A stretch of DNA of 4,089 nucleotides from a virus (lineage: Duplodnaviria > Heunggongvirae > Uroviricota > Caudoviricetes): the IMG/VR virus record IMGVR_UViG_2700989507_000008, positions 1 to 4,089 of that record. One strand, given 5' to 3'. The stretch's first letter is position 1; the number at the start of each line of letters is the position of its first letter. The notes under the pieces are model-generated. The model saw only the letters and a list, made by a program, of their open reading frames with translations. It searched no databases and had not been told where the DNA came from. Both the position numbers and the translations under genes were made by a program. Positions 1,614 to 4,089 of the stretch are shown here, piece by piece.

Positions 1614-2357
1614 ATGACACAGACTGAATCAGCGATTCTGGCGCATGCCCGGCGGTGTGCGCCTGCGGAGTCGTGCGGCTTCGTGGTGAGAACGCCGGAG
1701 GGGGAGCGGTATATCCCTTGTGTGAATATCTCTGCAGAGCCGGAGGCGTATTTTCGTATTGCACCGGAAGACTGGCTGCGGGCAGAGATGCAGGGTGAGA
1801 TTGTGGCGCTGGTCCACAGCCACCCCGGTGGTCTGCCCTGGCTGAGCGAGGCCGACCGGCGGCTGCAGATAAAAAGTGCACTGTCCTGGTGGCTGGTCTG
1901 CCGGGGGGAAATTCATAAATTCCGCTGTGTGCCACATCTGACAGGACGGCGCTTTGAGCACGGGGTGACGGACTGTTACACGCTGTTCCGGGATGCATAC
2001 CATCTGGCGGGAATTGATATGCCGGATTTTGAGCGTGAGGATGACTGGTGGCGCAACGGTCAGAACCTGTACCTGGACAATATGGAGGCGACTGGTTTTT
2101 ACAGGATTTCCCTGCCTTCCGCACAGCCTGGCGATATCCTGCTGTGCTGCTTTGGCGCATCGGTGGCCAATCATGCCGCCATATACTGCGGCAACGGTGA
2201 GCTGCTTCACCATCTGCCTGAACAACTGAGTAAACGGGAGAGGTATTTCGAAAAATGGCAACGACGAACGCATTCAGCCTGGCGTCACCGCCACTGGCAC
2301 GTATCTGCCTTCACGGGGATTTACAACGATTTGGCCGCCGCCTCAGCCTGTATGTGA
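1614..2357 (+). CDS. K: Tail assembly protein K; N-terminal JAMM/MPN metalloprotease-like domain plus C-terminal NlpC/P60 cysteine peptidase-like domain
   Basis: ATG at 1614, 10 nt after the L stop; N-terminus MTQTESAILAHARR is gpK-like. JAMM motif H-x-H-x7-S-x2-D is intact (His68/His70 at 1815-1823, Ser78 at 1845-1847, Asp81 at 1854-1856). NlpC/P60-type Cys at 1974-1976 (DCYTLF) and downstream His at 2172-2174 (NHAAIY). The tracked ORF 1353..2357 extends upstream in-frame, but that part overlaps L and is not gpK-like. No obvious Shine-Dalgarno before 1614, so the start is probably translationally coupled to L. Confidence 0.88.
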   Translation: MTQTESAILAHARRCAPAESCGFVVRTPEGERYIPCVNISAEPEAYFRIAPEDWLRAEMQGEIVALVHSHPGGLPWLSEADRRLQIKSALSWWLVCRGEIHKFRCVPHLTGRRFEHGVTDCYTLFRDAYHLAGIDMPDFEREDDWWRNGQNLYLDNMEATGFYRISLPSAQPGDILLCCFGASVANHAAIYCGNGELLHHLPEQLSKRERYFEKWQRRTHSAWRHRHWHVSAFTGIYNDLAAASACM

Positions 2358-2935
2358 ACACGGCAGCGGAAGCCATCCGGGCGCTGTCGTTACAGGTGCC
2401 GGGATTCCGCCGTCAGATGAACGAAGGCTGGTACCAGATACGTATTCGCGGTGAGGACACGGCACCGGAGGCGGTGTACGCCCGTCTTCACGAACAGCTG
2501 GGTGAGGGAACGCTCATCCACATTGTGCCGCGACTGGCCGGGGCCGGAAAGGGCGGACTGCAGATTGTGCTGGGGGCGGCAGCCATCGTGGGGTCGTTCT
2601 TCACGGCCGGGGCATCAATGGCGTTATGGGGTTCAGCCCTGGCAGCCGGTGGTTTTTCTGCCACCACGATGCTGTTTTCACTGGGGGCCAGCATGATACT
2701 GGGTGGTGTGGCTCAGATGCTTGCCCCGAAGGCAAAAACACCGGATTACCGCGCAACGGATAACGGCAGACAGAACACGTATTTTTCCTCGCTGGATAAC
2801 ATGATTGCCCAGGGGAACCCGATGCCGGTGCCTTACGGTGAAATGCTGGTTGGCTCCCGGCGAATCTCCCAGGACATCAGTACCCGTGATGAAGGCGGTG
2901 ACGGGAAGGTGGTGGTTATCGGGCGGCAGGCATAA
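2255..2935 (+). CDS. I: Tail assembly protein I
   Basis: 226-codon ORF; translation (ARICLHGDLQRFGRR ... IHIVPR.AGA ... QIVLGAAAI.GSFFTAG ... NTYFSSLDNM.AQGN ... VVVIGR) is gpI-like. GGGAGAGG at 2236-2243 precedes ATG 2255. The first 103 nt overlap the 3' end of K in a different frame. Stop TAA 2933-2935. Confidence 0.9.
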   Translation: MATTNAFSLASPPLARICLHGDLQRFGRRLSLYVNTAAEAIRALSLQVPGFRRQMNEGWYQIRIRGEDTAPEAVYARLHEQLGEGTLIHIVPRLAGAGKGGLQIVLGAAAIVGSFFTAGASMALWGSALAAGGFSATTMLFSLGASMILGGVAQMLAPKAKTPDYRATDNGRQNTYFSSLDNMIAQGNPMPVPYGEMLVGSRRISQDISTRDEGGDGKVVVIGRQA

Positions 2936-2940
2936 AAGCG

Positions 2941-2978
2941 AAAAAATCCCGCAGTGCTCACGGACAGGAACTGCGGGA
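2941..2978 (-). terminator. Predicted Rho-independent terminator acting on the minus strand
   Basis: Perfect 9-bp inverted repeat TCCCGCAGT (2947-2955) / ACTGCGGGA (2970-2978) with a 14-nt loop. On the plus strand it is preceded by AAAAAA (2941-2946), so the minus-strand RNA would have the GC-rich hairpin followed directly by UUUUUU. There is no U-tract on the plus-strand side, so it is not a plus-strand terminator. Confidence 0.5.
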
Positions 2979-3037
2979 GCGTTACGAAGATTGAGTGTAA
3001 GGAATTATTCTTATGTCACGACAAAAAACATTAACGC
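2941..3037 (-). ncRNA. Hypothetical ~95-nt small RNA antisense to the tail operon, in the I-J spacer
   Basis: Inferred from the candidate promoter (TSS near 3037) and the minus-strand terminator (ends near 2941). The predicted transcript contains no ORF longer than about 6 codons and has a GU-rich 5' part (GCGUUAAUGUUUUUUGUCGUGAC). The 5' end is uncertain and there is no expression evidence. Confidence 0.25.
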
Positions 3038-3043
3038 AGAGAA

Positions 3044-3071
3044 ATTATTAGCGCCACAGTCAGTTTGTGAA
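3044..3071 (-). promoter_or_regulatory. Candidate sigma70 promoter on the minus strand (-35 TTCACA, 16-bp spacer, -10 AATAAT)
   Basis: Read on the minus strand: TTCACA (plus coords 3071-3066), 16-nt spacer, AATAAT (3049-3044); each is a 5/6 match to consensus. Lies in the AT-rich core of the I-J spacer and points towards the minus-strand terminator at 2941-2978. Predicted by eye only. Confidence 0.3.
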
Positions 3072-3108
3072 AATGTGAAGATATTCAGAATTTTTATTCA
3101 GTCATGAT

Positions 3109-3139
3109 ACAGGCATCCTCCGGGATGCCTGTTGTTTTT
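3109..3139 (+). terminator. Predicted Rho-independent terminator acting on the plus strand, immediately upstream of the J ribosome-binding site
   Basis: 10-bp stem ACAGGCATCC (3109-3118) / GGATGCCTGT (3123-3132) with tetraloop TCCG, followed by TGTTTTTG (3133-3140). The reverse complement lacks a U-tract, so it is unidirectional. Confidence 0.55.
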
Positions 3140-3173
3140 GTGCGTAACAGTTATCACAGTAAAGGGTGAGACA

Positions 3174-4089
3174 ATGGGCAAAGGTGGCGGCAAGGCGCAC
3201 ACGCCGGTAGAGGCAAAGGACAATCTTAAGTCCACGCAGATGATGAGCGTGATTGATGCCATTGGTGAAGGGCCGATTGAAGGCCCGGTGAAGGGGCTGC
3301 AGAGTATCCTGGTGAACAAAACCCCGCTGACGGACACGGACGGCAATCCTGTGATACACGGTGTGACCGCGGTCTGGCGCGCCGGGGAGCAGGAGCAGAC
3401 ACCACCGGAAGGCTTTGAGTCCTCCGGAGCGGAAACCGGACTGGGCGTGGAAGTGACGAAGGCAAAGCCGGTAACGCGCACCATTACATCCGCGAACATT
3501 GACCGCCTGCGGGTCACCTTCGGGGTGCAGTCACTGGTGCAGACCACGTCAAAGGGTGACCGAAACCCGACATCCGTCCGACTGCTGATTCAGTTACAGC
3601 GTAACGGTAACTGGGTGACGGAAAAGGATGTCACCATTAACGGCAAGACCACCTCGCAGTTTCTGGCGTCGGTGATTCTGGATAATCTGCCTGAGCGGCC
3701 CTTTAACATCCGGATGGTCCGGGAGACAGCGGACAGCACCTCGGACCAGCTGCAGAATAAGACGCTCTGGTCGTCATACACCGAAATCATCGATGTGAAA
3801 CAGTGCTACCCGAACACGGCGATTGTGGGGCTGCAGGTGGATGCGGAGCAGTTCGGCGGCCAGCAGATGACGGTGAACTACCATATCCGTGGTCGCATCA
3901 TTCAGGTACCGTCAAACTATGACCCGGAAAAACGCACGTACAGCGGTATCTGGGACGGCAGCCTGAAACCGGCATACAGCAACAACCCGGCCTGGTGCCT
4001 GTGGGACATGCTGACTCACCCGCGCTACGGCATGGGAAAACGTCTGGGGGCGGCAGACGTGGACAAATGGGCGCTGTATGCCATTGCGC
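3174..4089 (+). CDS. J: Host specificity / tip attachment protein J, N-terminal fragment (3' end lies outside the window)
   Basis: ATG at 3174 preceded by AAGGGTGAG (3161-3169). Frame is open to the window end and so is absent from the supplied ORF track. My translation begins MGKGGGKAHTPVEAKDNLKSTQMMSVIDAIGEGPIEGPV and continues ...NKTLWSSYTEIIDVKQCYPNTAIVG...AWCLWDMLTHPRYGMGKRLG, recognisably the conserved N-terminal region of lambda-family gpJ. Confidence 0.92.
   Translation, partial: MGKGGGKAHTPVEAKDNLKSTQMMSVIDAIGEGPIEGPVKGLQSILVNKTPLTDTDGNPVIHGVTAVWRAGEQEQTPPEGFESSGAETGLGVEVTKAKPVTRTITSANIDRLRVTFGVQSLVQTTSKGDRNPTSVRLLIQLQRNGNWVTEKDVTINGKTTSQFLASVILDNLPERPFNIRMVRETADSTSDQLQNKTLWSSYTEIIDVKQCYPNTAIVGLQVDAEQFGGQQMTVNYHIRGRIIQVPSNYDPEKRTYSGIWDGSLKPAYSNNPAWCLWDMLTHPRYGMGKRLGAADVDKWALYAIA

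Follow-up and report, generated by a model that had tools for sequence, protein, structure and literature searches.

A putative intrinsic terminator between tail genes I and J of a lambdoid prophage, beside a PasB/EcOnc22-type antisense RNA gene

Introduction

Intrinsic terminators and lambda-type Q antitermination are both established, and together they form the basis of the mechanism proposed here. The known terminators of Q-antiterminated lambdoid late operons (tR' of lambda, the tandem t'J after gene J, and the terminators that end morons such as lom and stx) are GC-rich hairpins followed by a U-tract, in sense orientation and downstream of Q. The hairpin that is the subject of this report shares all of these properties and differs from them in position: it lies between the structural genes I and J, whereas they stand at either end of the operon or behind a cargo gene on the sense strand.

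The same intergenic region also harbors small RNAs. PasB of EPEC strain E2348/69 (NC_011601, 1466343..1466261, minus strand) is an 83-nt RNA that has been validated by northern blot and whose stability depends on Hfq (Pearl Mizrahi et al. 2021; Zhu et al. 2026); it was reported to be higher under a 'nonactivating' growth condition. EcOnc22 of EHEC strain Sakai is ~85 nt long and is destabilised without Hfq (Tree et al. 2014).

The stretch of DNA analysed here (the window, 4,089 nt) is a lambdoid tail module of the order H-M-L-K-I-J, as found in STEC and EPEC prophages, judging by its list of open reading frames (ORFs) and by RefSeq annotation, and the prophage is of the Shiga-toxin type. The end of the tape-measure gene comes first, followed by M, L, K (a C40 peptidase), then I as the last gene ahead of the I-J spacer, and finally J; an identical region is present in E. 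coli O103:H2 strain 12009, and the RefSeq annotation of that region was used for I and gpJ. By examining the structure of the hairpin, its operon context, the variation of the spacer that holds it, and the corresponding junctions of other phages, we propose that the hairpin is an intrinsic terminator that stops unmodified RNA polymerase and is read through by Q-modified polymerase, a reading to which we give a probability of about 0.6. The hairpin is an unannotated instance of a well-known kind of element, and the small RNA beside it is one that has already been described.

Results

The spacer between I and J is much longer in the window (238 bp) than in lambda (60 bp), and its features are collected in Table 1. 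A 301-nt query consisting of the spacer and both gene ends matched 1756 of 5426 complete E. coli genomes, in up to 11 places per genome and mostly in STEC and EPEC; the query also matched Stx1a, Stx2a and Stx2c phages.

Table 1. Features of the I-J junction, in window coordinates.
Feature	Position	Strand	Details or basis
Gene I, tail assembly protein	2255..2935	+	ORF list; RefSeq annotation of the identical O103:H2 12009 region
I-J spacer	2936-3173		238 bp
PasB/EcOnc22-24-type sRNA gene	2941..3037	-	Antisense to the late operon; aligns with mapped PasB
Terminator hairpin of the PasB-like RNA	2947..2978	-	UCCCGCAGU...ACUGCGGGA, then U6; terminator scan and fold
Promoter-like site of the PasB-like RNA	3044..3071	-	TTCACA (3071..3066), 16 nt, AATAAT (3049..3044); promoter scan, 10/12 match
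CRP-like palindrome	3074..3089	.	TGTGA-N6-TCAGA; inside the most conserved spacer block, 3069-3097
Hairpin, 10-bp stem with UCCG tetraloop	3109..3132	+ (late-sense)	Structure, energy, shuffles, variants
Stem, 5' arm	3109-3118	+	ACAGGCATCC
Loop	3119-3122	+	TCCG
Stem, 3' arm	3123-3132	+	GGATGCCTGT
T-rich tail	3133..3142	+	TGTTTTTGTG; sequence; T-run present in all type A variants
J ribosome-binding site and start codon	3164..3176	+	GGGTGAG, ATG at 3174; sequence; RefSeq gpJ of the identical region

A first-pass annotation, made from the letters of the window, had described a 10-bp stem with a tetraloop and a U-rich tail at 3109-3139, and such a structure is indeed present there. The stem consists of ten perfect pairs, six of them G-C, and ends 41 nt upstream of the J start codon; the four-nucleotide loop, taken together with the pair that closes it, C(UCCG)G, belongs to the UNCG class, which is common in terminators. 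A terminator prediction and a folding-energy calculation, both suggested by that annotation, agree with it: the hairpin is the top match of a consensus terminator scan of the window and has a folding energy of -18.8 kcal/mol, while its 46-nt context folds at -19.9 kcal/mol (z = -4.4; equalled by none of 200 shuffles). The GC-rich stem, the loop and the stable fold are those of an intrinsic terminator (stem of ~5-14 bp, loop of 3-8 nt), and a d'Aubenton-Carafa-type score is positive (+15 to +25).

Directly after the stem comes a U-rich tract, TGTTTTTG, with 6 T in 8 positions; if the closing A-T pair is counted as tail, the tract reads TTGTTTTTG. It is interrupted by a G (UGUUUUUG). On the minus strand the arm GGATGCCTGT is followed by ATCATGAC, and the scan reports the hairpin on the plus strand only; lacking a T-run after the stem on the minus strand, the hairpin is expected to act in one direction and not as a bidirectional terminator. 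Sites of this quality are rare by chance: when the whole 4089-nt window was subjected to 1000 dinucleotide-preserving shuffles and both strands were searched for a perfect stem of at least 10 bp with a loop of 3-8 nt and at least 5 T in 8, a single shuffle contained one (4 at a stem of at least 9 bp, and 23 at a stem of at least 8 bp).

The window stops short of Q, and the position of the hairpin relative to that gene was taken by proxy from an Stx2c phage (LC727876.1) whose spacer is 100% identical to that of the window. In this phage the Q antiterminator gene (PF03589) lies at 666-1457 and the hairpin at 28150-28173, both on the plus strand, which places Q ~27 kb upstream of the hairpin and on the same strand. 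The first-pass annotation had further supposed that expression of J would depend on Q-like antitermination; the presence of Q upstream is in keeping with this, and, as Q is already required at tR' for the whole late operon, the dependence is not specific to the hairpin. Across the 36 kb of LC727876.1 there are nine sense against one antisense terminator-like hairpins, compared with 0.12 and 0.22 in shuffles. Among the sense sites are a tR' candidate that follows Q, one that follows a lipoprotein gene, one upstream of stx2A and one downstream of stx2B; further sites lie between TerL and the capsid gene, within M, at I|J and downstream of lom. The hairpin at I|J has the lowest folding energy of the nine. 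The site at 14615-14632 (GAACCGC-TGCG-GCGGTTT plus a T-run) stands between the large terminase and protease-capsid fusion genes. The I|J hairpin is annotated neither in the lambda RefSeq record, at the equivalent site, nor in E. coli RefSeq records, and no description of a lambda I-J terminator was found in the open-access literature.

The spacer had been treated as otherwise empty, and this view has to be given up: most of it is a minus-strand sRNA gene of the PasB/EcOnc22 type. The mapped position of PasB in E2348/69 is the I-J spacer of prophage PP6, where the gene comes immediately after the stop codon of I. The PasB sequence can be aligned with the window, whose copy has a diverged PasB body with the same terminator and promoter layout. 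The predicted RNA of the window ends in U6 at 2946..2941, after a terminator that adjoins the I stop codon and whose 5' arm is, in the conservation profile, among the two most conserved segments of the spacer. The -10 box places its predicted 5' end at ~3037, and the published E2348/69 end corresponds to ~3022. In E2348/69 itself, the published PasB 5' end falls ~15 nt downstream of the start predicted from the consensus TATAAT box (2844 versus 2866-2871 in our numbering of that locus); the coverage-based end may be only approximate, or the RNA may undergo 5' processing. In the alignment, the -10 hexamer keeps a constant offset from the conserved block at 3069-3097 in four diverged variants (AATAAT, TATAAT, TATCAT and AATAAT).

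The northern probe for EcOnc22/23/24 is the late-sense strand of the equivalent segment in the I-J spacer of Sakai Sp15 (the published EcOnc peak coordinates refer to NC_002695.1, with an offset of ~130 nt against the current record), and these RNAs are therefore antisense to the late operon and belong with PasB. On this comparison of positions and sequences, the EPEC name PasB and the EHEC names EcOnc22/23/24 appear to denote one family; the PasB papers that we searched contain no statement of this equivalence. As other possible occupants of the spacer, AgvB/AsxR and HnrS (EcOnc10-12) were considered and rejected, as their positions are downstream of PR' or at other places in the late region, and not in the I-J spacer. 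Being extra DNA with its own promoter-like site and terminator, the spacer fits the definition of a moron. The hairpin and the sRNA gene share this spacer, but the hairpin lies on the opposite strand, outside the sRNA (2941-3022/3037) and upstream of the sRNA promoter; by strand and position it is not part of the mapped PasB transcript, and many PasB loci lack it (types B and C, below).

Hairpins that are GC-rich and followed by a T-run also occupy this place, between the stop codon of I and the ribosome-binding site of J, in junctions of unrelated sequence. Lambda has AAACCGCC-TGCG-GGCGGTTT followed by TGTCATTT; HK106 has GCCACC-TTCG-GGTGGC followed by T6; and a hairpin with a T-run is likewise found in phiES15 and in prophages of Enterobacter, Rahnella and Pantoea, whose I proteins are 33-45% identical. 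In Pseudocitrobacter and E. wuhouensis, the terminator of an inserted lipoprotein gene occupies the position. A strict perfect-stem rule scores 8 of 11 junctions (types A and B counted), and shuffles equal their quality in 0-33 of 2000 cases; the Enterobacter hairpin was seen by eye and fails the strict rule on account of a G.U pair. No hairpin was found at I|J in mEp013, WFI, phi1026b or Swain, where I and J overlap or nearly abut. The scan of genome contigs with protein I yielded 12 loci only, several of them apparent contaminants, and it was the distant ones that were informative.

The comparison extends to the T1-like phages KP36 (JF501022) and Tls, which have the same junction in a homologous tail module and a hairpin of the same anatomy, although its sequence is unrelated to that of the window. 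In KP36 the depositors annotated it as 'rho-independent terminator; ARNold'. Unlike the prophages, these phages are virulent and have no known Q, and a promoter-like box, TACAAT, follows the hairpin (in Tls, for example), so that J there looks like a separate transcription unit.

Since such hairpins stand between cistrons of an operon whose polymerase should ignore terminators, they may act on the fate of the RNA: as a barrier to 3' exonucleases that stabilises the tail-assembly message after its cleavage, or as an insulator that keeps the J ribosome-binding site open. Compact junctions fit this explanation, in that they put the T-run directly before the J Shine-Dalgarno sequence (TTTTTTATGGGTGAAA) and the hairpin 16-22 nt before the start codon (lambda, HK106, phiES15, Rahnella and Pantoea; that of Pseudocitrobacter follows the lipoprotein moron), as does the fact that the hairpin of the window folds independently of the J leader. 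All independent versions, however, keep the T-run right after the stem, which is needed for termination and not for an exonuclease barrier; the Shine-Dalgarno sequence of the window's J gene is ~25 nt away from the T-run; and the hairpin with its promoter-like box in KP36/Tls points to a boundary between transcription units. We therefore consider a role in RNA fate unlikely.

Variation within the closer relatives was surveyed in 86 I-J spacers, sampled via protein I from viral contigs (the 80 closest relatives) and from phage and genome records, and three types were distinguished. Type A (47 of 86) carries the hairpin at 3109-3132. Type B (15 of 86: locus L004, of the PPompW phage, at ~760-936, and 14 further loci; 342-bp spacer) has a different hairpin of 12-13 bp, AACCCCGGTATC-TGCT-GATACCGGGGTT, which looks bidirectional, with T-rich runs on both strands, and which leaves ~100 extra bases before J that could give room for a second antisense RNA. 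In type C (24 of 86: locus L008, at 2182-3032, and 23 further loci; 851-bp spacer), the PasB promoter region and the hairpin are replaced by a minus-strand Cu/Zn superoxide dismutase gene, sodC (PF00080), and there is no hairpin ahead of J. The hairpin, missing from these 24 spacers, is thus dispensable. The PasB body and terminator remain downstream of sodC, where PasB could be a product of the sodC transcript or could be silent.

Among type A spacers a single pair of the stem differs, being U-A in some and C-G in others, with U.G and C.A as recombinant forms, and the hairpin of E2348/69 has a different loop. A test of covariation among the homologous hairpins is accordingly weak, with one pair involved and 56 of 500 shuffles doing as well, and the hairpins of unrelated sequence at the same position in other phages are the stronger comparative evidence. 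Both compensatory changes would be non-synonymous in the sole ORF that spans the hairpin, which favours a constraint on pairing over a constraint on a peptide. That ORF (21 codons, 3104-3169, plus strand, with ATG at 3104) stops in the Shine-Dalgarno region of J and is probably not translated, because it has no ribosome-binding site of its own and the stem changes alter its codons. A second candidate peptide, of 12 aa at 3013, was rejected as well: it is not conserved in E2348/69.

Extra genes recur at this junction. In prophages of Pseudocitrobacter faecalis (L092, 1910-2545) and Enterobacter wuhouensis (L095) the I|J junction has taken up a putative lipoprotein gene in sense orientation, complete with a promoter region and a terminator of its own; with PasB and sodC at the same place, the junction is a hot spot for the insertion of cargo. 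The hairpin of the window could accordingly be a leftover: the terminator of a former sense-strand moron, preserved through linkage and recombination rather than by selection. The cargo at I|J does differ among phages, and the lipoprotein gene has its terminator exactly there; the hairpin has been lost in type C and swapped in type B; and its high conservation could reflect a recent spread among STEC prophages. What makes this origin rather improbable is that lambda, HK106, phiES15 and the Enterobacter, Rahnella and Pantoea prophages have hairpins and T-runs of different sequence in cargo-free junctions of 50-60 nt (those of lambda type have no room for a gene, since the hairpin comes ~20 nt after the I stop codon), and that the compensatory change from U-A to C-G argues for maintained pairing.

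The most conserved block of the spacer, at 3069-3097, contains a CRP-like palindrome, AAATGTGAAGATATTCAGAATTT, ~42-45 bp upstream of the predicted PasB start; the window has one match with at most one mismatch to TGTGAN6TCACA, against 0.10 expected. The palindrome is probably an upstream element of the PasB promoter. The 29-nt block occurs without the hairpin, at 100% identity in every such match listed, and by subtraction ~1000 of the 1639 E. coli genomes that match the block have no full-length match; the block is therefore assigned to the PasB promoter unit rather than to the hairpin. By the same subtraction from full-length matches, the genomes with the block alone, among them many non-STEC ones, may carry a type B or sodC-type spacer. 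A CRP-dependent promoter on the plus strand was also considered: with the palindrome centred at 3081.5, the -10 element would fall at 3111-3116 (AGGCAT) for class II or 3131-3136 (GTTGTT) for class I, and both are unusable.

These observations bear on an alternative raised in the first-pass annotation, namely that the hairpin is the 3' end of a short plus-strand RNA arising in the spacer. Such an RNA would be ~60-90 nt long and could be transcribed, for instance, divergently from the PasB promoter. Conservation within the spacer peaks in the segment just upstream (3069-3108), whose A/U-rich composition resembles that of Hfq-binding modules; the -10 region of PasB, being AT-rich, could fire both ways (TATTAG matches 4/6 on the plus strand); and prophage sRNA genes are often paired. 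The promoter scan of the window, however, detected no plus-strand promoter-like site at its threshold, in line with the annotation's own failure to see a convincing one, and hence no source upstream in the window for transcripts to be stopped. Neither of the CRP positions offers a usable -10 element, and the conserved block belongs, as described above, to the PasB unit. Moreover, the 63 Hfq-CRAC candidates include no late-sense candidate at the Sakai I-J spacers, the examined parts of the EPEC RIL-seq tables hold no I-J intergenic entry, and an Rfam search of 2800-3300 on both strands gave a best E value of 1.1, with all matches far below the gathering score. A plus-strand RNA ending at the hairpin is consequently unsupported, and we regard it as improbable. 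Least credible of all is a chance inverted repeat without function, for which nothing speaks beyond the general frequency of short hairpins, and against which stand the result of the window shuffles and the conservation of the hairpin with its positional analogues.

Discussion

The original claim of a plus-strand intrinsic terminator inside the late operon is borne out computationally, by the structure of the hairpin, its rarity by chance, its conservation, the analogous hairpins of other phages, the Q gene upstream and the excess of sense terminators; from these we infer termination in vivo, read-through by Q-modified polymerase and any selective role. Several points count against the terminator reading: the covariation among homologous hairpins is weak, the U-tract is interrupted, the scan detected no plus-strand promoter upstream in the window whose transcripts the hairpin would stop, and no hairpin is present in sodC-type spacers or in phages whose I and J genes overlap or nearly abut.

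In the mechanism that we propose, RNA polymerase without Q, which in a repressed prophage could have started at stray or divergent promoters or at those of morons, would pause on the U-tract while the GC-rich, UNCG-capped hairpin forms, and would release its transcript near the predicted 3' ends at ~3137-3141, so that it would be kept out of J and the cargo genes downstream. Q-modified polymerase from PR' would pass the hairpin during lytic growth. The hairpin would then be one of about eight sense-oriented terminators that punctuate the late operon, and the I|J boundary a recurrent position both for terminators and for the insertion of extra genes, of which the PasB/EcOnc22-type antisense sRNA gene, inserted between the I stop codon and the hairpin, would be an example. 

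If the hairpin does terminate transcription, it is an extra barrier that keeps J and the virulence cargo downstream silent in lysogens, and one more site at which late expression is tied to processive antitermination; it would then be of relevance to the leakiness of prophage genes in STEC. For annotation, the spacer should be labelled as a PasB/EcOnc22 sRNA locus with a terminator on the sense strand.

On a larger scale, we put forward, tentatively and with more doubt than confidence, that the I|J terminator is a selected checkpoint common to lambdoid and T1-like siphoviruses and not an incidental feature, and that it is also a preferred landing pad for cargo. Under such a scheme, the tail-tip assembly genes would be separated from J and its cargo (lom, tail fibres and effectors), which would be transcribed only by antitermination-competent polymerase or, in virulent relatives, from a promoter of their own; and PasB, sodC and lipoprotein genes would all land at the same site. 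In the prophage of the window, the hairpin could in addition keep divergent and possibly CRP-stimulated transcription from the PasB promoter out of J in lysogeny. That lambda-like and T1-like tail modules share a terminator at I|J may be a pattern not yet described, as no open-access paper on it was found, and a recurrent terminator and cargo insertion point at this boundary is a small, testable generalisation about tail-operon architecture and mosaicism.

Two minor observations were made in the course of the survey. Four short contigs (L088, L090, L094 and L096) bear tail DNA of E. coli or Enterobacter type under unexpected labels (Streptomyces flavalbus, Parendozoicomonas haliclonae, a Geobacteraceae MAG and a Clostridiales MAG); the I proteins of the E. 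coli-type ones are 92-100% identical to that of the window, and the contigs most likely represent assembly contamination or mis-binning. A second terminator-like hairpin, GGCATGGTGGTTACCGTGCC followed by TTTTTATGG, lies on the plus strand within the coding region of M (766-785 of the window, corresponding to 25807-25826 of LC727876.1); it is kept in a related phage, and may be a chance occurrence or a weak internal terminator.
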